Of a stretch of DNA of 64,000 nt, positions 17,687 to 48,785 are shown piece after piece; within the stretch, counting starts at the first letter, position 1; every line of letters starts with the position of its first letter. Made by a program: the position numbers and the translations under genes. The stretch is from Paraspadella gotoi (taxonomy: Eukaryota > Animalia > Chaetognatha): the NCBI GenBank assembly GCA_051294375.1, contig CM119270.1:5681452-5745451 (forward strand). Reading direction: 5' to 3'. The notes below the pieces were generated by a model. The model was not told the DNA's origin. It saw nothing but the letters and a program-made list of their open reading frames with translations, and did no database searches.

Positions 17687-29355
<11,669 letters not shown>

Positions 29356-33097: not shown

Positions 33098-33706
33098 AAG
33101 CAACGTTGACAACGACGATGCTAACTGGGAGAAAACGCGTTCAGTTTTGGCGGATATATGCGGCGAACCAGAGGCCCGAATTCGCGAGAGCGATCGATTT
33201 CGGGAAACGATTCATTGGTGCTCACATTTATTTTGTATGTTAAAATAGTATTTTAATGCTTATTATTATAAAATAATCGATATGCAGTCACGGTGTGAAT
33301 CTTTTGAGCGATAACTATTTCCTCACCAAGTAAAATTATCGATTCAAGTCCCGCGGGATCTAAAATAACGACCCCCGGAACTATCATCGCTTTGGTGACG
33401 AGAAAAAACAGGGAAAAATAAAAGAAACGAAAAGAAAAATAAATCGATATTCTACGTCGATTTTTTTTCAGAACCGGAAATTCCGTTGGACGTCGATTCG
33501 GATATGTTCGGTTGAATTAAAGGTGGAATAAATGTAGTATAATAATTCGTAGACATAATTCAAGAATTTCATTTCATTTAAATTTAAATTAACTTTTAAA
33601 TTTAAGCTTCGGCTCAACTCGAAATCCCAGTCGCTACTCGAAACCTCTGGATAAACTCAATTAGACTTTCTTCTCTCCTATCTCTTGTTTATTTTTTACA
33701 ATCAAT

Positions 33707-36700
33707 ATGAGGGAAATCGTTCACATTCAAGTTGGTCAATGTGGGAATCAAATCGGCACCAAGGTAAGTAAAAACTCTCTGATTCGATTATTTCTCTTGA
33801 CAAGACAGTGGATCAATTCCACTTACGTAGAAATATAATATTTTTAATGAAGCTAATAATGTAATATATATTCAAAATATATCTAACCTTTTAAAATATT
33901 TCTATTATATTTACCTTCAGCACTTTGACTTTTGTTTTACAAAATTCCTTTCAAAGATTTTTTTTTTGGGGGGGGGGTTTAGTTTTGGGAGGTGATTTCC
34001 GAGGAGCACGGGATCAACGCCGATGGTCAGTACGAAGGATCCAACGACCTTCAGCTGGAGCGGGCCAACGTGTACTACGAGGAGGCTGGGAGTAAGTGAT
34101 CATTGATGATGTTCTTTGTTGTTATCGTTAGGCTGACATTTTTTGGTGGAAAAAAAAGAGTACTTTCATAAATCAGGGTTATGATTCTTAAATATGATTT
34201 TTTTTATTTTCAAGACATCAATACTAACTAAATATTATACAATATACATACTACATAGTTCATAGTACACCGTCACAGATCCTTTAGATCATTCGGTCTC
34301 ATCTCGAAAATAAAATAAAGCAATAAACTCCATTTATTTTTTTCTGATAATTAAATAGACAAGATATTTCAATCCTTCACGTTTCCGTTTCCACTCGGTC
34401 TCTCCATCTTGTTTCCACTCGGTCTCGAGATCTCGTTTCCACTCGGTCTCGCGAGCTCATTCTGTAGCCAGAGCGGTTCTCCGCCGCTCCCAAATAAAAG
34501 ACCCTCGCTCCGTCCCCTCTAATGAATCTTCTAATGAATCTAATGAATCCTCTAATGAATCTAAAGAATCCCTCTAATAAATCCTCTAATGAATGTAATG
34601 AATCCCTCTAATGAATCTTATAATGAATCCAATGAATCACTCTAATGAATCCCAGACGGTTCCTACGTTCCACGCGCCATCCTCGTGGATCTGGAACCCG
34701 GCACAATGGACGCCGTCCGCAACGGACCCCTCGGCCGACTCTTCCGGCCGGACTCGTTCGTCTTCTCTCAATCCGGCGCCGGAAACAACTGGGCCAAAGG
34801 GCATTACACGGAGGGTGAAAGTTGGAGATCGATTGATATATATTAATATATATTTAAAGATTAATTTAAACCAATCAAATCAAATCGATCGATCGATCAA
34901 ACGCCAGGTACCGAACTGGTCGACAACGTCCTAGACGTCGTGAGAAAAGATGCCGAATCTTGCGACTGTCTGCAAGTAAAAAATATCATTATATATTGTA
35001 TAATGTTTGAAACTGAAATTTAATTGACCATATGACGGTTTTCCTTTTTCGCCAAGGGTTTTCAAATGACTCACTCTCTCGGCGGCGGAACCGGGAGCGG
35101 AATGGGGACGCTCATGATTTCCAAGATTCGGGAGGAATACGCGGACAGAATCATGAACACTTTCTCAATCGTACCGTCGCCTAAAGTAAAATCCTTTGGC
35201 CTAAAAAAGTTAGGAAAGATGTTTTCATAATCGTTCAATGTTCATGTAACACGTGCTTTGAAAAAAATAATTATTATTTTATAATTTGATATAGAAAAAC
35301 ATCGATTTGGGATACCGTGCTAATTTTATTTAGACCATGCATTCAACCAATTCTCTGGCCTTGAATATGAACCAGCTAAATGGTTTGAATGCATGGTCTA
35401 AATAAAATTAGCACTGTATCCCAAATCGATGTTTTTCTATATCAAACTACTCGGTGCATGAGATGACACTTAACAATCTATTTTATAATTTACAATTTTT
35501 AACTAAGTTTTTTTTACCAAATAGTGAATTGTATACTAAACAAGACCATTTTTTGGTTACAAAAATTTGTTTACGCATTCTCAAACAGTTTAAAGTAATT
35601 TTGAAAGCTTTTTTTTGGGCCAACAGTTTATATCACATGATATTCATAAAATTCTAATATTTTTTTTTGTTTTTACATGTAATTTTCTTTTTTATTTAAA
35701 AAAACCACGATGACAGTGACAATGAACAGTGATACAATAAAAAGACCTAATAAGACATCAATGCTCTACAGAAATATAAGATATATAAGATATATAAGAA
35801 TATTAGATATAATGATAAGTAAAATTTTTTTAGAAAGCAATATATATATATATTTAAGATATAGATTAAAAGTAAATTTTCATAAAATATAAAATAAGAA
35901 ATAAAAACTAGTGAAAATTTCATAAATAAATTATATAGATATATAATATATATATATATATATAAGTTATTAGAAAATGTTTTCGAAGCAATGACAATTT
36001 GTTGTTGGTATCAATAATCAACTTAATATTAATTTTCTAGCATCTAATAAACGTTCAGTACCGCATCGACCTAGGGAGCACAACCATCTGCACTCAGAAT
36101 ATCATTTCATGAAACTGCGCGGCAAATGTTTTTTTCTTTCATTTTTAACGATAACTTTTGTCTTTACTATCAAAAGATGCAAGCGTTATTCGTTGTAAAA
36201 TTAACTCTCCCTAGTGCCGCAATATGCAAATAAGATGAATTCGCACTTTTTTAAAATATATCACCCTAGGTTTCCGACGTGGTGGTGGAGCCGTACAACG
36301 CGACCCTGACCCTCCATCAGCTCGTCGAGAACACGGACGAGACCTACTGCATCGACAACGAGGCTCTCTACGACATTTGCTTCAAGACGCTCAAGCTGAG
36401 GACGCCGACCTACGGGATCTCAATCACCTCGTCAGCGCGACCATGCGGGTGAGTGAAGACTTCACTGAAGAGGCAGCGTTGGCGCAGGGGTTGGTGTCTT
36501 TAACTGTTTATATCCTTGCATTTTCTTCCCTCTAAGACATCTCGTTTCTATGTCTTTCTTTCTGTCTTTCTGTCTGTCTGTCGGTCTCCCGTGTCAGCTT
36601 TTCACCGCAGCTTCTTGCTCTTCATCTCTAATTCTATAATTTTCTGACGCTAGTTCTACTTAAATGACTGTTTGTCTCTTTCGTCCATCTCTTTCTCCAA

Positions 36701-38753
36701 CTTAATTTTTTCTCCATCGCTGTTTTTCTACTCGCTTCCCGCTTCCTTTCGCGTCCATCTCCCCTTCGCCAGGAGTGACGACCTGCCTCCGCTTCCCCGG
36801 CCAGCTCAACGCCGACCTTCGCAAGTTGGCCGTCAACATGGTGCCCTTCCCGCGGCTGCACTTCTTTATCCCGGGATTCGCGCCCCTCACGGCACGGGGA
36901 TCGCAGAACTACAGATCCCTCAGCGTTCCGGGTAAGACGAGGGTGAGGAAACCTATGCGGGTTAAGTTTTGATTTCGGTGAAGTTATGGGATTTCCTTAC
37001 CATTTCCAGAACTGACCCAACAAATGTTCGACGCGAAAAACATGATGGCGGCAGCGGATCCCAGACACGGAAAGTACCTTACCTGCGCTGCGATTTTTAG
37101 GTGAGTTTTTATGTTTACTTTGTTAAGGTTATTTATTAAAAGAAACTAAATTGAAAAGGTTGGTAACGCAATAAGTTAATTTAGCAAATAACTGCATTGA
37201 CAATTGTTTTGGTTTAACTTTTTCTCGAAAGAGGGCGAATGTCGATGAGAGAAGTCGACGAACAAATGCTCAACGTCCAGAATAAAAATTCGTCGTATTT
37301 CGTCGATTGGATTCCGAGCAACGTGAAGGTTGGGGCTTTGATAAGGAACGACGAAAGAAAAAAAAATCATACTATAAATATAAAATGAAATTGAAAGAAT
37401 TCGTATTTTGCGAGTAGGGGCATAATATAACGGCAGGTTTAGCAGGTACGTATTGTCAAAAAATATAACAAAACTAAACGATCTTTTTTAGATCGCGCAC
37501 TGCGACATTCCGCCCCGCGGGCTGAAAATGTCGGCGACCTTCATCGGCAACACAACCTCGATCCAGGAACTCTTCAAAAGAGTCTCCGAACAGTTCGTCG
37601 CCATGTTTAGAAGGAAGGCTTTCTTGCAATGGTGATTAGGAAAAGGACAAGCTATTCATTTGTTCAACTAAATATAATTATGAAATTTAAAGCGGTGATC
37701 TTTTCGGTGATTGTTAGATCATGGATAAGATTTCTCAATCATAAATTTGAAGCTTTTATTAATTCATTCATTTATTTTTTTTTTTATTGATGTAATTATT
37801 CATTTTTTCGTTCATTTATTGTTTTAATTCATTTATTTATTGATTCCTTTCAATAATTCTCTAATTTATTCATTAATTCCTTCATTCTATCTTTCAAACA
37901 TTCTATGGTGGACTAAAATCCACTAACCGTTCATCAGCGGCCATTGGTGCCGGAGGCAAGTCATTCGCCTCCAACCCAAAGGCCCGGGGTTCTAGCCCGG
38001 TGGCCGCCTAGCAGTTAAGAGGGACGGGGCGCTTAACCCGCTGTAACACGGTGTTACAGCCTGATCCAAAGCTCAGGGACTGCTTATATTGAACAGTTCT
38101 ATCACTAACTCATAACAATTATTACTGCCTCTTCATTGGTGAGCCCGACTTCCGAACACAACAGCAACAACACTTTCAGGCGAACTGCCTCAACCTGGCG
38201 ATGCACTTTCCGCCAACAACACATCAGGCGACATGCCTCAACTTGGTGATTCACTTTTCACCCAACAACAATTCACTGAGAGACGCAACAGACTTCTCCC
38301 TACGGGAGGGGGGATGTATGGTGGACTAAAATCCACTAACCGTTCATCAGCAGCCATTGGTGCCGGAGGCAGGTCATTCGCCTCCAACCCAAAGGTCCGG
38401 GGTTCTAGCCGCGGTGGCCCGCCTAACAGTTAAGAGGGACGGGGCGCTTAACCGCCTGTAACACTTTGTTACTGCCTGATCCGAAGCTCGGGGACTGCTT
38501 ATATTGAACGGTTCTATCACTAACACTTAACAATAATTACTGGCTCTTCAATTCATTCATTCATTCCTTCAGGTACACGGGCGAAGGCATGGACGAGATG
38601 GAATTCACGGAAGCGGAATCCAATCTCGTCGATCTCATTTCCGAGTATCAACAGTATCAAGATGCCAGCGCCGAGGACGACGACGCCGACGACGACGATG
38701 ACTACGACGAAGAGGACGACGACGAAGCGGCCAAGGGCGAAGCCGAGAAGTGA
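33707..38753 (+). CDS. TUBB: Beta-tubulin, divergent isotype, 11 exons
   Basis: [17 protein letters not shown] start, GGGTGSGMG motif, [22 protein letters not shown]. Exons ~33707-33763, 33983-34091, 34656-34814, 34908-34975, 35057-35185, 36270-36448, 36773-36931, 37010-37100, 37233-37328, 37492-37631 and 38573-38753. Two apparent 1-nt deletions near 36415 and 36445. Confidence 0.96.
34518..34652 (+). repeat. Degenerate CTAATGAATC minisatellite abutting a tubulin 3' splice site
   Basis: About a dozen 10-14-nt units immediately before the cccag acceptor (34655). TTTCCACTCGGTCTC also occurs three times at 34388-34450. Confidence 0.85.
35285..35446. repeat. Near-perfect fold-back (~65-bp arms, ~30-nt loop), MITE-like, in tubulin intron 5
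   Basis: TTTGATATAGAAAAACATCGATTTGGGATAC...CATGCATTCAACCA pairs with TGGTTTGAATGCATGG...CCCAAATCGATGTTTTTCTATATCAAA. Confidence 0.9.
37937..38007 (+). ncRNA. tRNA-like domain / internal Pol III promoter in the 5' LTR (second copy ~38350-38422)
   Basis: GCGGCCA...TGGCCGC acceptor-like stem, A-box-like TGGTGCCGGAGG, B-box-like GGTTCTAGCC in the CCGGG/CCCGG T-arm, and CT-CCA-AC at the anticodon-loop position (Trp-like). D and anticodon stems are degenerate, so it is not a functional tRNA. Confidence 0.7.
38010..38084 (+). ncRNA. Candidate twister ribozyme, type-P5 permutation (5' LTR copy)
   Basis: AGCAGT(P5)-TAAGA-GG(P2)-GACGGG-GCGCT-TAA-CC(P2)-C-GC-TGTAACA cgg TGTTACA(P3)-G-CCTGA(P4)-TCCAAAGC-TCAGG(P4)-G-ACTGCT(P5). 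Predicted U^A cut at 38034/38035. P1 is reduced to a 5-nt linker and P2 has only 2 bp. Confidence 0.65.
38427..38497 (+). ncRNA. Candidate twister ribozyme, type-P5 permutation (3' LTR copy)
   Basis: Same layout. The loop TCCGAAGC gives a full UCCG:CGGG pseudoknot, and P4 CCTGA/TCGGG keeps pairing through U-G. Predicted cut at 38449/38450. Confidence 0.65.
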
Positions 38754-38849
38754 AAAGGGCGGAGTGAAAAGGACGAAGTGAAAAGGGCGAAGTGAAAAGG
38801 GCGAAGTGAAGAGGCGAAGTGAAAAGGTTGAAGTAAAAGGGGCGAAGTG
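38747..38849 (+). repeat. 14-bp tandem repeat (GAAGTGAAAAGGGC) starting across the tubulin stop codon
   Basis: About 7 degenerate units; the first contains AAG TGA. Confidence 0.85.
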
Positions 38850-40563: not shown

Positions 40564-43043
40564 ATGATCAAAATGGCTGATCTCAACAGCAACATCATTC
40601 AGCGAGATCTCGAATCTAATGAACTTGAGCCTTACTCAAATGGAACTAATCAGAATAATTCCCACAGCCAGAGAGACCAGCGTCCTGATGAATTCGACTC
40701 TTTTTTAAAATCCGACGACAATCCGGCTGATGTAACCTATCCAATGGTTGAACTTGTGGTGCTTTGTTTATCCTTTCTCTACATGTTACACTACTTCTCC
40801 ACGATCCTGTACTTCTTCATTCCGCTCGCCGATGTTGTAACTGACTTCGTAACGGCCGATCACTATCGAGCTCGCTCGAAGCTCATACAGGAGGAAAAGT
40901 AAGTTAAAATACAGTAATATATTCTAATTTAAAGATCTTAAAATGTATGGTCATGTTTGGGAAAGCTTATTGTTACTAAAATATCGTTTTGTCTGCAGTT
41001 GTCTCTTGTATAAAGATGCCAATGGAACCATTAGGGCCGTCAGTCCTGAGGATTTATTAACCTTACCTCGGCCCGTCATTCTAGGTGAGTTGGTGAGATA
41101 CTTCAAAATGGCCTCGTTACATTTACAGAATGTAACTTTTTCAAAATACTTTTCAGTCAACACTCGTTTTCCTCGACCGTCATCAAGGTTGGACGATGAA
41201 TCTGAGGAGCCATTGTTAAATTTCTCAATATTTTACGCTTTGACCCTTCTCTTCATCTTCCTCCCATGGGTTGCAACGGTGCTTTTTACGAGCTGCAAAA
41301 GGTTACTCTGGTTTTATGTTCTGCATAATTTCGATCTCACGGTTGATCTCCACAAACCACTTCCCTCAGAGTGGCTGGAAGAAGTTCTTAAGAGCTACAG
41401 TCTGACGCATTTTCTAGTCGCTGTCATATTAAAACTACTCCTCTTAATATTTATGCCATTGTTGATTTTTGACTCATATTTGAGAGAGTTGTCAATCCGT
41501 CGACGACTTTACAAGATTGAAAAAGAAGATAGAGACAAGGAAAAAGAAGAGATTGGGCTAATGAATGAGAATAGAGTGAAGGGAGAGGAGCAAGTTGCCT
41601 CACAAAACTCACAAGTTGCGGATGGTGAAAGGGAACTTACCGATATTCAGATTGCGCGAAAGGAAGAAACTCAACGACTACGTCGTGAACTTCTTTCTCT
41701 CTCTAAAAACCGATTTTTTGAAGCGTACCTTCGAAGCGCTCCTCAGTTCGTGCTGCAAATGTCGTGGAGAATTTTAGACGGGGTTTCAATAGGCAAACTA
41801 TTTCTCGGTACAATAATAACTTCTCTGCTCACTCTTTTTTTAGTCGCTTGGCATTTTAACATTGATGCCATGAGAAACAATCCCAATAGGAGACATCCTA
41901 CTTGGGGAGCTATGTGGATAATGATTTTAATCATCACTCCAACAATAATATCGAATCTACTCGTCTATTCAGTTCTTTTTGGAAGTACAACATGGATTTG
42001 GAAAGTTTTCGGAGCAGCGATATTTGCGTTTTACTTTGGAGTTGGAGTAATTATCGATGTTTGTCATATATCAAGACAGCCCCACTGTAATGGTGAAGAT
42101 ATGAACGTAAACAAAGTTTCTAAAAATTGTAAGCTCTTTTTCAACCTTGTGTTCAGGGGATACATTTCAAGTATTACTCTGCTCTTTTTTAGAATAAAGC
42201 AATTTGACGAAAAGAATAAAATCTGGAAGGACGAATCTGATACTGAGGAGTTTTTCTTTGAACCGAAGAAAAGATTTTGCCATCAGTTGGTTTATTTTTT
42301 GTCAAGACTCGTTCTTCATGTCCTCGTTGTGTGCTTTTTATTAATATGGAATGACCCTAATAACCTACCGTGTTTACTGAATAGTAATTTCAGCAGCTGG
42401 TATATTCCCATATGTACTGTCATCGTAGCAGGGCCAGTAATTTCTATCATTTTCTTGATTATCGACTGGACGGCAAAAAGTAGACCAGCGCTTTTTACCT
42501 TGGATGGTTCTGCTATCATGGGACTTTACGAGAGTTTCTGTGAGAATTTGAAAAGAGAAGTAGAACAAGAAATGATCGAAACCGTTAAAGAGTTGCAAGA
42601 TAAGGAAAGGAGAAAATTAGCGGCGTTCCGCGGTTCTGGTAACAAATCATTGTTCGATCATCTCAACAATAGTCCAGCTGACGATTCCAAGAGAATCCTC
42701 TTCGCCGCAGAGTTTGTGGACAAAGGTCTTCCCCTCCAAGCGTTCCTCGAGATGTTCGTGGATCTCGCTATTAAAACGGCCAAGGACAAGTGGGTCGTTG
42801 AAGAAACGAGCGAAGTTGTGGAGGCTCTTGCTGAAAGGAGATGTCGGGGAGAAGGGGGCGATGAAACGTTCATATACAGATGTTATACCGAGGCCAATAG
42901 TCACAACTTTTCCGCTGCGGGGTTTTTGTGGCAGAGATTCAGGAACAAACTCTCTTCATCGGAAGAATATCAGGTATAAAAATTAAAATATATATGGTTG
43001 AGTAATTCCAATATTAAATTTTATATATAATTTACAGGTGTGA
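40564..43043 (+). CDS. XK-related (XKR/CED-8 scramblase family) multi-pass membrane protein, paralog 1
   Basis: Exon 1 40564-40898 (ADVVTDFVTADHY), phase-2 intron, then exon from 40999 (CLLYKDANG). Probable 72-nt in-frame intron 41085-41156. Family motif FFEAYLRSAPQFVLQ and many hydrophobic segments. Ends either at the unspliced stop 42979 or via intron 42974-43037 to GTG TGA. Confidence 0.82.
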
Positions 43044-43917: not shown

Positions 43918-46900
43918 ATGGCTATCCCCGCAAACGATTCGCCGGACGATCCGGAGGAAATCGAGGTTCTTTTACCGGAATCCGAATCCGTGCCATCCTC
44001 AATATCCGGCGTCAAATCTTCCGAGAAATTCTTCCCCGTCTCCTCTAGATCTTCGCTCTGCGGCTTCTTGCTGCAAATGACAATTTCCGCATTCGTCTAT
44101 CTCGTTGCAATCGCTGATCTCATCACTGACTGCATCTTGGCCGAACACTACCGTCGCCGCTCGGATTACATTCGTGACGACAGGTCTCGATCCGTCGTTG
44201 TCGTTGTTGTCGTCGTGGTGGTTTTTATTCCTTTTTAAAAGACTAAACGTAAAAAAAGAGAGAAAAAAAAAATCTACTTTGCTGATTGGTTAAATAAAAT
44301 ATCCCCATTTACATTTCTGCCATTTTTGTAAATTTTTAAACGTCAGATTGTATCAAGACTACACGGATTTCAAATGAGAGCGAAATGAAAAGATTAAATA
44401 CTGTGGCTATATTATTTGTTATAGCAACTTTAGATTTTTACGCTGGTAGAAAAATCGCTGTCATTTTTTATTTTTCTTTATTTTATTTTATTGTTTTACT
44501 TTCTTAGTAAGGTGCTCATCAATGGCATTGTTGAATTTCAAAAAAAGAATTTTTTTGGGTTTAAAAAGGACCTTCCTATTATAAAATATATTTTTATAAA
44601 AAAAAATAAAATGTTAAAAAATTTTGGTTCATCTTACAGATATAGACATTGGAGTATGTGTCTGAGCAATCTGAATGTCAAAAGCTTTTTCACAACCATA
44701 ATGACAGCCATTTTAATTTTGTAGTTTTTCTAGTTAAAACTTTAGGAAATTTTTATTTTTTATTTTGAAAAAACAATGATTTTATTATTAATAATCATTG
44801 TTTATCATAATTTTTTTTCCTAATTTAAACTCGCAACGAAAAGAGAGATCAAATACAATGTCAAGTTAAAACTTCTAGAAAATAAAAATTTTAGCATTGA
44901 AAAAAATTTTGAAAACAAACAACACTTCAACGCTTCACTAAACCTTGAAATATATTAATAAGAATTTGGTACATGCTCTGTAGATATTATACTATCTAAT
45001 AAATGTAAAAAAAATTAAAATTTTTGTCTCAATATTTTTTACAATGAGTTTAAAATAGAACTATCAACTAAGATGAGAGAAATGTCGCAAAAAAAGCAGC
45101 TGGAAGGCAATCGCACCAGTAGTTGTATTATCAATTATCAATATAGGAACATAAATGTTAAGGAATTTTTTAACTGATGTAAAGAACAAATATTAATCAC
45201 ATTCAGTCAGTTATGAGTTATAACAACTCTTTTCATTTCACTCCCATTTGAAATCCGTGTAGATGATTTTAGAGACAAAGTTTTTTAAATTATTTTTTTC
45301 ATTTTTCTTTTTCATAGATGCTTGTTATATCTGGATGCCAATCAGACAATTCAAACAATTAGCCCAGAAGATCTTCGTCACAAAAGATCCACAGACGCTG
45401 AAGAATTTAACGAACCGCTCTTGGATTATTCCCTTTTCTTCCATTTAACAGTTTTCTTCATATTCCTTCCCTGGATTTCCAGGATGTTTCAGTATAGCTG
45501 CAAAGAATTGCTCTGGCAGTATGTCCTGCATAATAATGAGCTTATAGTTAATTACGAAGATCCTTTGCAACCAGAATGGGTGGACAAACTGTTGACCGAC
45601 GACACTCTTCTCAGCTTTTTCGTTTGTGGCATAATAAAATTGGTCATGTTACCCTTGTTGCCGGGGTTAATACTTATAGCTCAGCTCAGAGAGTTTAAAA
45701 TCAGATTTAGACTCTATGAAATCGAGACGAAGATGAAACTAAACAATCCCAAAAATTGCGAGCTAAAGTCTTTATCTGATGGAATAAGCAGAAGGTTGTC
45801 AAGTTTCAATACAGCGGAATCTTCGGAAAATGAGAGATACGACGGTAATAAAACAAAAACTGAGACTGAAATTAAAGTCATTTCGGAGAAAATTGAAGTA
45901 AAAGTAGAAAAAAATCATAAAGTTACCTTTAATGATGATGAGGAAAAGCAAATGAAACCTAAAGGGGAAGAAAGTTTTCATCCTCGCTTGAATTGTTGTT
46001 CAAAAGAGAGCATTAAAATTAAGGATCCTATTCAGTTGGCGCTTAAGGAGGTCAGTGAGGACCGAAGTTACAAACCGAGCGAAATCTGTCAGCTCGTCGA
46101 TGAACTTGTCAGACTCTCGGAATACCGATTTCACGAAGCCTTCTTAGAAAGCGCCCCTCAATTTGTGTTGCAAATGGTTTGGAGAATTTTGGATGGAGTC
46201 ATGATGGACGGCTTGTGGGCGACAAGCATGATAACCTCTTTTCTAAATCTTTGTTTCGTTGTGTGGAACTATGTGAATGATGCAATCAAAAACAATCCAA
46301 TCAGGAGAAACCTCACGGGTTGGGCGATGACCCTTTTGTTTTTTGAAAAGGCTCCATCTTTTTTTTCTAGGTTACTTTTTTACTCAATTCTTTTTGGCAG
46401 TACCTCTAAAAAATGGAGGCTCCTTGGCGGGGCATTAGTACTATTCCATACACTATTTGGAGGATTTTTTGAACTGCTATTTGCTAAGTTCAGAACAGAA
46501 AATAGAAAGGCAAAAGTTTCAAAATTTAGTTGTTTTCTTAAATACCTTAAGCTTACACTTAACTGTTTGTTTCGAGGTTTTATTTCCAACATAACTCTAC
46601 TTCTGTTTAGATTGAAACATTATGACAGTAAAAAGAAAACATGGCTGGATGAAGCTGACACCGAAACCTTGGCAACTGATCCACCCATTAGATTTTATCT
46701 TCAAACTGTTTTTTACATACTTGTAATATCAATCCACTCGACAGTCGCTTATTACTGGTATGAAGACGACTCACCATCCTGTTTGCTTGACGATCGCTTC
46801 AGTGAGTTACGATTGCCAATTTTAGGAGTCATTTTAGCTGGACCTTTAATTTCTATTATGTTTTTGTTCTTGTACTGGAAAGTCAAAGACAAGTCAATGT

Positions 46901-48785
46901 TTTCTACTTTAGGCCGAAAGGCTATCAACGGCCTTTACTTTTATTTAGAAAAAAGTTTGAGAAAAAATGATGCAGTGATTGTTGAAAACTGTATTAAAAG
47001 GTTAAAGGATGAAGAAAAAAGATACATTTTGACATTCAGAGACCATAATTCAAGAACTTTGGTAGACAACCTGAATGAAAGTGAGGTTACCAATTTTGAT
47101 AAGATCTCCATTGCTGTAACTTTTCTTAATCATGGTCTCAATTTTATAGATTTTGTGGACTTATTTGTAAATAGTGGCATTAAAAGTGAATCTGATGAAA
47201 GTACTATTTCCAGAGTTGTTTGGATATTAGAAAAATATGGTAATACTATGTATGTTAGAAATGACTGCGAAGAAACTTTTCTCTTTCGCTGTTTTCAAGA
47301 TGCTAAAGACCATAACCAAGCTGCTTTGAAGGTTCTCAAAAAAATTTCAAAGAGCCATATACCTTTAGCTCTCATCCCATTAAAAAATTCCATCAACAAT
47401 GAAAAAGAAGTAAGTACCCAGTAAAAAGTTGAAAAAAAGGTGTAAAAATGAATTTAAAAGAAATTGTTATTTTTTTAGGTATGGAGTGGAACTACGAGTC
47501 CAATCGTATTTTTTCATGGAGATAAAATCAAAATCATAGGCGGATCTATTCAAGTTCAAGATAAAGATAATACAGAAAGAGGGTAAGACAATTGATGATG
47601 TTATATCCAGATTCACATACCAACTATTTAAAACACTTTTACGTATATTTTCGTAGCTTTAACTATCCGGAACCAAACATCCTCTGGTCCTTTTGCCCGA
47701 AAGAGCGAAAATTTTACCGCCAGGAAACCGTTGGGGACGTTCCACAGAAATCGCGGGCCGCTGCCTCGGGAATTATCTCAGAAACCAACGACAATATTAC
47801 CAAGTATTATCTAATAGCGTTTGGAGGGTGGCTAAGTGAAAATAACGTATCAAATGAAGTCTACAGTCTTGATTTGGAAACGTTAGTTTGGAAAAATCTT
47901 AAGGTTGACCCATCAGTGCCGTCCCAAATCAAACCGGCAATGTTAGATCGTCATGCTGGTTGGGTCATTGGGAGTGATTTTTACTCGTTTGGGGGATGGA
48001 GCTACCAAAAACATGAAATTAATCATTCAGAGCCAAGCAGTGAGTTAACAAAAAACATCGACCTATCAAAAATTAAAGAAACTGAAGATAATCTCACTAC
48101 CCAAAATGACGATGCTTCCATGGACAAAAAAAGGAAAAGGAAAAAATCACGGACGTCCAGTAACGGCAATTCCGAGCCAGTTCCAAATTACACTGTTCAT
48201 TCCAAAAATGGAATGAGCAACAACATAATAATCCGCTTCAATCGCCCCCTTTTGGAAAATCGCAACTGGGAACATATCCCCGTAACGGGGAGCGTTCCCT
48301 TACCGCGGCACAGAGTCGCCCATTGTCTCACTAAGAAAGGCGATTTTTACATGTACGGCGGGATGAGAGGCAACGATCGATCGAGCGAACTCTTTCGCTT
48401 TTCACCCACAGTCAGCAAATGGACGAAAGTTAAATTCATTTCACAGGATATTCCTCCTCCTTTGAGTGACGCCACATTGAGCTCATTGACGCCTTATAGA
48501 TTTCTTCTTTGTGGCGGAGGGACTGTTAAACAGACTCTTCAGCGCAGGAGCTGGATCATTGATGTAAAAGAAGGCAGAAGCTCAGACGAACTCTTGGCAA
48601 CGGTAAAACCTTTGCTCACAATGTTGCCCAGCCTTGACGCAGAGAATAAAGGCCAAGGCATTTGGCGCCACAGAGACGTTCTCTGGGTTGAAGGAGAAAA
48701 AGTCTTTCTGATCGGGGGAGATCAGAATGAGAAAAAAGTTTGTGATTTTATAGTTGAAATGGAAGTCTCGCATCTGATGGATTGA
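43918..48785 (+). CDS. XK-related membrane protein fused to a C-terminal Kelch beta-propeller, paralog 2 (~1190 aa)
   Basis: Exons 43918-44183 (ADLITDCILAEHY), 45318-47409 (FHEAFLESAPQFVLQ), 47479-47582 (VWSGTTSPIVFFHGDKIKIIGG) and 47657-48785 (LIAFGG, FYSFGG, FYMYGG, FLLCGG and VFLIGG Kelch motifs with downstream W). All introns are GT-AG with matching phases (2, 0, 2). Confidence 0.82.

Follow-up and report, generated by a model that had tools for sequence, protein, structure and literature searches.

Retrozymes are divided into plant elements with long terminal repeats (LTRs) and animal elements without LTRs, all of which carry hammerhead ribozymes, according to the available sections of PMC7761336, PMC7229834 and bioRxiv 10.64898/2026.07.22.740005. 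The same sections, together with those of PMC4918200, describe animal retrozymes as having neither LTRs nor a primer-binding site (PBS) nor a polypurine tract (PPT), or LTR retrozymes as primarily plant elements. We describe here an element at positions 37904-38550 of a 64,000-nucleotide stretch from the chaetognath Paraspadella gotoi (assembly GCA_051294375.1, contig CM119270.1, positions 5,681,452 to 5,745,451 of the forward strand; the whole stretch is called the window hereafter). This decayed copy represents a highly repeated terminal-repeat retrotransposon in miniature (TRIM), and each of its LTRs contains a twister-type ribozyme motif. The high-copy, Helenus-like TRIM is real, and the presence of a twister-type motif in each LTR is well supported by sequence comparison. 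A literature search, outside which lay subscription papers and the Repbase and Dfam entries, returned neither a twister-bearing TRIM or other LTR element nor an LTR retrozyme from an animal. All features of the element given below are on the + strand.

A highly repeated miniature LTR element

The element is 647 bp long and non-coding, its longest open reading frame (ORF) with an ATG start comprising 66 amino acids, and consists of two direct repeats around an internal part of 181 bp; it thus has the two LTRs, the lack of coding capacity and the size below 1000 bp by which TRIMs are recognised. The 5' LTR (37904-38135, 232 bp) and the 3' LTR (38317-38550, 234 bp) are 92.3% identical, with 16 mismatches and 2 gaps. 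The former was delimited by repeat comparison and by the loose ends of contigs, and the end of the latter was read together with its flank, without differences, in contigs of sequencing runs X3 and X5. Both LTRs terminate in CA and begin with TA, the contig alignments having corrected the initial TG of an original prediction made from the letters of the window. The PBS (38137-38149, 13 bases) lies one base past the CA of the 5' LTR, and its match is unique within the window at up to two mismatches. Its letters agree at 12 of 13 positions with the tRNA-Trp PBS of the wasp element Gypsy-32_NVi and of Helenus-2_SyJa, as given in the supplement of PMC10886601. A PPT of 11 bases (38304-38314) is followed by a 2-base spacer and then by the 3' LTR, so that PBS and PPT occupy the places expected in a TRIM. 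An internal duplication with a 48-bp period (38176-38262, repeat family D7) lies between CAA-rich tracts and was non-coding in the ORF scan. The proposed miniature LTR layout was therefore borne out by the repeats ending in CA, the PBS, the PPT and the short longest ORF, whereas the target-site duplication proposed with it stands on weaker ground. The letters ATTC are present at both edges of the element (37900-37903 and 38551-38554), but an ATTC microsatellite borders the right edge, and a single ATTC duplication, readable in one copy, is therefore weak evidence of a target-site duplication.

Contigs from four of nine sequencing runs, covering one organism and three studies, were aligned to the window (7317, 13286, 2447 and 921 aligned contigs). 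Contigs with loose ends were counted up to 128 per site, and depth sums were not taken as copy numbers. The loose ends gathered at 37904, 38135 and 38550: the contigs leaving the reference exactly before 37904 numbered 105, 127, 74 and 23 in the four runs, and those leaving it exactly behind 38135 numbered 64, 67 and 35. Because the contigs depart at the same bases and their flanks are unlike (agreement 0.40-0.46), the element belongs to a large family whose dispersed copies share fixed ends, as in integrase-made insertions and as is usual for TRIMs. The copy in the window differs from most family contigs at many positions; it is old and damaged in both twister-type motifs, and activity is expected of younger copies.

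The contigs also allowed some observations on the family as a whole. In three of the four runs, the majority sequence read from the loose ends of other copies has ATAT immediately in front of the LTR (37896-37903), which hints at a preference for AT-rich targets. The summed depth on the LTR (37916-38135) is several times above twice that on the internal part (38148-38321), which hints at many solo LTRs. Run X9, which we guess to be RNA, gave its 921 contigs on the stretch and one exon-joining tubulin contig; these contigs show no strand, ends, level or circles.

tRNA-like head and twister-type motif

A tRNA covariance model built from 27 bacterial tRNAs was run over the window, and the segment 37937-38008 of the 5' LTR ranked first of 17 matches (19 bits, rough E 0.0005; runner-up 14.9 bits). 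The alignment covers the acceptor stem, the T arm and the B box (GGTTC, 37988-37992), and the D and anticodon arms are degenerate. An imperfect A box (37945-37956) fits the TRG and YGG of TRGCY..YGG, but not the CY. The corresponding head of the 3' LTR (38353-38419) is more decayed and scored 8.2 bits only. The predicted tRNA-like segment of each LTR was thus recovered, that of the 5' LTR as the top model match of the window, yet below the thresholds of ARAGORN and Rfam, neither of which reported a tRNA in the element, and 37937-38008 folds as a long stem and not as a cloverleaf (fold z -3.1). Comparison of the head with phages by blastn gave two chance matches only, and pattern searches of viral contigs for relatives or for a matching tRNA gave none. 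The head, which may resemble tRNA-Gly, has the appearance of a tRNA-derived LTR segment. Its sequence fits a decayed RNA polymerase III (Pol III) promoter as described for Helenus in the available text of PMC10886601.

Directly 3' of the head, both LTRs present in order P5, UAA, P2', GA, CGG, a 6-base linker, U^AA, a short P2, GC, an 8-bp P3, a 5-bp P4 around UCCNAAGC, and the second strand of P5. In the 5' copy (38010-38084), assigned by descriptor, pairing and fold, P5 is formed by 38010-38015 and 38079-38084, P2' by 38019-38022, P2 by 38037-38039, T2 by 38040-38041, P3 by 38042-38058 and P4 by 38060-38064 and 38073-38077, enclosing L4 (38065-38072). The twister consensus places the catalytic GA at 38023-38024 and the predicted cleavage site U^A at 38034-38035; the T1 strand (38025-38027) contains one mismatch, and the linker GGCGCT (38028-38033) stands at the position of P1. 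The 3' copy (38425-38499), assigned by descriptor and pairing, has a fully paired T1, a P2 strand of 2 bases and one mismatch in P5; its linker is at 38443-38448 and its predicted cut at 38449/38450. Between the two LTRs there is no difference in the catalytic GA, the UAA, T2 or the linker. The twister order and pairings originally proposed for each repeat were as described, and the two differences between the LTRs that had been tied to the fold (a P4 pair, and a 3' loop completing T1) are real. Feature by feature, the motif agrees with a twister in the catalytic bases (UAA, and GA in L1), the L4 loop, the pseudoknots T1 and T2 (the T1 mismatch being confined to the 5' copy), P3, P4 and P5; P2 falls short, with 2 clean pairs, and P1 forms no hairpin in either copy.

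The motif was compared with a yardstick of 40 viral loci with P5-order twisters, of which 20 were sent to Rfam (12 over-threshold matches on 10 loci) and 14 were aligned. The T1, T2 and P4 pairings were confirmed in the 14 aligned natural twisters. A descriptor was written from these 14, with P2 relaxed to 2-4 bases after the target had been seen, and recovered 12 of them. On both strands of the window it matched the two LTRs only, and among 100,000 dinucleotide shuffles of each LTR it passed 1 and 2, none with full T1 and a 5-bp P4; a stricter descriptor passed 0 of 150,000 shuffles. The pairing of CCG with CGG in T1 differs on both sides from the T1 pairs of the phage and Schistosoma twisters and equals that of the bacterial twister L248. 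A comparison by eye of P3-P4 of the 3' copy with the first of the Schistosoma twisters tabulated in PMC8501958 (Table 1) showed identical blocks of 7 and 9 letters.

Most family contigs have G at 38068 (774,260 of 832,526 in depth in run X1), which makes T1 fully paired. Pairing is preserved or strengthened by the common variants at 38004, 38007, 38010, 38473 and 38490, and preserved by those recorded for P5, P4 and the tRNA stem; position 38049 falls in a loop. The catalytic GA, the linker, the UAA and T2 are unchanged among the 40 of 112 family variants listed. From its sequence, the motif is very probably derived from a twister, and it is likely that young copies cut themselves.

Natural twisters in phage contigs offered a further observation on the order of the parts. 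Two type-P1 twisters stand in tandem, 50 bases apart and with a 6-base linker, at L291:466-557 (likewise in L290, L271, L283 and L285); read across the junction, such tandem P1 twisters give the P5 order, a natural route to permutation. Three type-P5 twisters are found at L262:37-884, about 360-420 bases apart.

The linker GGCGCU lies exactly between the T1 strand and U-1 and is self-complementary over all six bases. Its duplex was calculated at -8.3 kcal/mol. Self-complementarity is found in 216 of the 4096 possible six-mers, a duplex of equal stability in 21 of them, and the LTR itself contains 7 self-complementary six-mers among its 227. It begins with a G-U pair, as in the natural twisters L261 and L245. 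The linkers of the two LTR copies could form one P1 helix, the two motifs then cutting together. In constrained folding, the nested double twister reached -130.0 kcal/mol against -120.5 kcal/mol for two separate folds without P1, a gain of 9.5 kcal/mol. Dimeric hammerheads with short palindromic stems, as presented in parts of PMC7229834 and PMC6765202, provide a precedent for a shared helix. The complementarity of the linkers thus shifts the likely mechanism towards a double ribozyme common to both LTRs.

Possible propagation through a circular RNA

Judging from the sequence, we see about an even chance that the element works as an LTR retrozyme, in which a transcript spanning both LTRs cuts twice and the resulting 415-nucleotide piece is circularised and copied by a Gypsy-type helper. 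Transcription would start from the tRNA-like Pol III promoter or occur by read-through; no run of four or more T is present in either LTR, and a Pol III transcript would therefore read through. In the transcript, the linkers of the two LTRs would pair as a shared 6-bp P1 helix, and two nested twister cores, each composed of halves of both LTRs, would form; for the cuts to be efficient, the entire element would be required. Cuts at 38034/38035 and 38449/38450 would yield a 415-nucleotide monomer without terminal redundancy, with PBS, PPT and one LTR equivalent. In the Discussion of PMC4918200 a plant retrozyme monomer without terminal redundancy is argued to need circularisation for copying, and RtcB circularises the RNA of animal retrozymes in vitro; here the monomer would be closed by a host ligase, for example RtcB. 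The circle, without a partner linker, would re-cut slowly, tRNA-Trp would prime reverse transcription round it, rebuilding two LTRs, and the helper integrase would insert the copy with a 4-bp duplication. Ligation by RtcB and the circle model have precedents in passages of PMC7229834, PMC4918200 and PMC6765202.

Several results weigh against this reading. Rfam twister models, which had been suggested as a check along with the original prediction, gave no match even at E 10, though a control was recognised, so that no score lay over the Rfam thresholds. A purpose-built P5 covariance model placed the two LTRs as the top 2 of 5 matches at E 0.8 and 0.93 only, with the 5' half in a shifted register, and a purpose-built core model missed the motif. 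Covariation, likewise suggested, was not seen either, as no two-sided compensatory change occurs among the 40 of 112 family variants listed. The P2 strand has 3 bases in the 5' copy and 2 in the 3' copy, versus 4 in 13 of the 14 natural examples, and a 4-bp P2 is thus lacking. In the minimum-energy fold of the 5' copy P5, P3 and P4 are formed and the UAA is buried in a competing hairpin (z -2.4), and the 3' copy folds no better than its shuffles. The original prediction had overlooked the shortness of P2 as well as the competing hairpin and the self-complementarity of the linker. As for the double ribozyme, the unconstrained fold of 38010-38499 reaches -160.9 kcal/mol, about 31 below the nested fold, pseudoknots being unscored, and P1 is dispensable for twisters according to the available text of PMC5408937, so that dependence on a dimer is not required. 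The internal part of the window copy contains one T4 (38255). Finally, no helper element is known for the family, no search aimed at one having been made, and no related family in another species came to light.

Some of these results have to be read with the make-up of the models in mind. The Rfam P5 model comprises 58 positions, with a long P1 but without P3. Most of the sequences behind the two purpose-built models had been selected by fixed P2 letters, which biases these models against the LTR motif. The other register suggested by the purpose-built P5 model, with a second UAA inside P3, was rejected, as it fails P2, T1 and T2. The natural twister L245 likewise has a P2 strand of 3 bases, and among 1948 natural type-P1 twisters, according to the available text of PMC11662667, imperfections of P1, P2 and P4, including deletions, were well tolerated, whereas changes in the pseudoknots or catalytic positions were harmful. 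When stretches of 2501, 191 and 86 bases were scanned with Rfam, nothing beyond chance matches of snoRNA type came up, and no hammerhead was matched in the element. An 18-base motif scanned against a metagenome met 2 chance matches, both unrelated, and a further viral-contig pattern search and a genome-contig scan gave chance matches only and no P5 twister.

The short P2 of both copies, the competing hairpin and the lack of covariance-model support would also be accounted for if the LTR had arisen by capture of a tRNA-headed short interspersed nuclear element (SINE) already bearing a twister (Penelope/Naiad-type tail or RTE-type head), and the ribozyme had since been inactivated by shortening of P2. 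The element would then be an ordinary Helenus-type TRIM propagating through linear, terminally redundant RNA. SINE capture is the origin proposed for Helenus, Ajax and Cassandra in the available text of PMC10886601, the motif is similar to the Schistosoma RTE twister, and a sense insertion in an intron would be better tolerated without cutting. We nevertheless hold such a silent state to be rather unlikely, since every catalytic and pseudoknot position is preserved in one LTR or both, as well as in the family variants listed, with variation at loop positions, and P2 defects are usually tolerated (PMC11662667, in its available text). Somewhat less probable again is that the motif is active but slow and serves to make a 3' end. 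Pol III would start at the tRNA head of the 5' LTR, cleavage would often fail at the 5' site, and cutting at the 3' site would substitute for a terminator. The product would be a linear RNA (about 37937-38449) that has a terminal redundancy of about 97 nucleotides and is reverse-transcribed through normal strand transfer, no circle being formed. In most Helenus LTRs, as far as they are presented in PMC10886601, the tRNA part is immediately followed by a T run; the LTR studied here has none and carries the twister in its place; the short P2 and the competing hairpin could also slow the cutting. However, both LTRs contain the same motif, so that escape of the 5' site would require a kinetic bias, and the shared-P1 fold would form both sites together.

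That a GC-rich, structured LTR segment merely resembles a twister by chance is a very improbable explanation. It would agree with the lack of a significant covariance-model match and with the fact that P2 was relaxed in the descriptor after the target had been seen. Against it stand the shuffle counts given above, P5, P3 and the precise fit of the linker to the P1 register, all of which lay outside the descriptor, and the letter blocks identical with those of the Schistosoma twisters in the part of PMC8501958 that was compared.

Self-cleavage followed by circularisation could take a more specific form, which we put forward tentatively and regard as doubtful in its full detail: what would be the first animal LTR-type retrozyme and the first with a twister, a Pol III-driven TRIM whose palindromic, shared P1 would let only full-length transcripts cut at both ends at once and would protect the circle from re-cutting. 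If true, the circle-based strategy would have arisen independently with another ribozyme class, and the twister would have a second biological role besides 5' processing in RTE elements, as well as a natural double form. The PBS, the PPT and the very large family would make the unproven reverse transcription on circular RNA testable. As Rfam misses such motifs, more of them may hide in TRIM libraries.

Genomic surroundings and comparison with known systems

On the gene reading, the element lies in the last intron (GT...AG, 37632-38572), and on the same strand, of a beta-tubulin gene (33700-38753), which is divergent, contains many introns and encodes an acidic C-terminal tail. Five of its exons were compared singly with full-length tubulins, namely 29 of 122 fetched proteins chosen by name; of 219 residues, 192-197 were identical in animal, 178 in fungal and 169-182 in plant or protist tubulins, so that the protein stands nearest to those of animals and by itself makes an animal host probable. 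Apparent single-base frameshifts near 36417 and 36446 reflect either an assembly error or a pseudogene. A 168-bp palindromic sequence resembling miniature inverted-repeat transposable elements and 88% self-complementary is found in a tubulin intron (35282-35449), and a 14-bp tandem repeat (38739-38849, repeat D2) runs over the tubulin stop codon. Elsewhere in the window, two long XK-related ORFs and one kelch-repeat ORF were found (40928-42979, 45289-47424 and 47571-48785), for which protein searches with kelch and XK proteins returned no scored relative, and cysteine-rich, EGF-like exon repeats are arranged in tandem at 21191-28000 with a period of about 200 bp, one ORF tested giving no Pfam match. 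Inverted duplications at 45985-54182/54276-62974 and 221-8888/16454-23117 have 85-92% identity and small indels; they may be real fold-backs or artefacts of long-read assembly, and single-base differences are therefore to be taken with caution.

The published features of the compared systems are cited below from the available parts of their sources. Among TRIMs, the element is closest to Helenus (TRIMp3; PMC10886601), with which it shares a size below 1 kb, a tRNA-like piece in each LTR, and the B box GGTTC; the candidate 4-bp duplication would match that of animal families. The Trp-type PBS also occurs in Helenus-2_SyJa, and the consensus LTRs of three wasp Helenus elements likewise start with TA. 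It differs by the twister motif that follows the tRNA part, where most of the Helenus LTRs presented have a T run. The available text of PMC10886601 makes no mention of a twister, and in exact motif searches of the Helenus consensus file, where a match can be hidden by a line break, none of the 9 matches listed was a twister loop placed as in a twister.

As a ribozyme, the motif resembles the type-P5 twister (Rfam RF02684) in the order P2'-GA-NGG-linker-UAA-P2-GC-P4-UCCNAAGC-P4 and in the T1 and T2 pseudoknots, and several phage P5 twisters share with it the UAA before P2'. In contrast to RF02684, it has a 6-base palindrome in place of the P1 hairpin, a short P2, a long P3 and a closing P5, and it remains below the Rfam thresholds. 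The T-variant twisters of Perere-3 of Schistosoma, a member of the RTE clade (PMC8501958), likewise belong to an animal retrotransposon and have very similar P3, P4 and L4 letters, but they are of type P1 and stand singly at the 5' end of a non-LTR element, whereas the motif described here has the P5 order and occurs twice, within LTRs.

Animal non-LTR retrozymes and Penelope-like elements (PMC7229834, PMC6765202, bioRxiv 10.64898/2026.07.22.740005) resemble the element in a short palindromic helix that a second copy is presumed to complete, and RtcB closes their circles; they differ in having hammerheads in tandem repeats without LTR, PBS or PPT. The plant LTR retrozymes (PMC4918200) are similar in being non-coding, in having a ribozyme motif in each LTR, a PBS and a PPT, and in that double cutting would give a monomer without R region; their 4-bp duplication has a candidate counterpart in the element. 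They have a type III hammerhead, LTRs of 300-400 bp and a tRNA-Met PBS, whereas the element has a twister-type motif, LTRs of 232-234 bp, a tRNA-Trp-type PBS and a tRNA-like head, its cleavage and circles being predicted only; hammerhead, LTR length, PBS type and plant host thus all set the two apart. With no hammerhead, the element falls outside the LTR retrozymes as defined, but it probably works like one.

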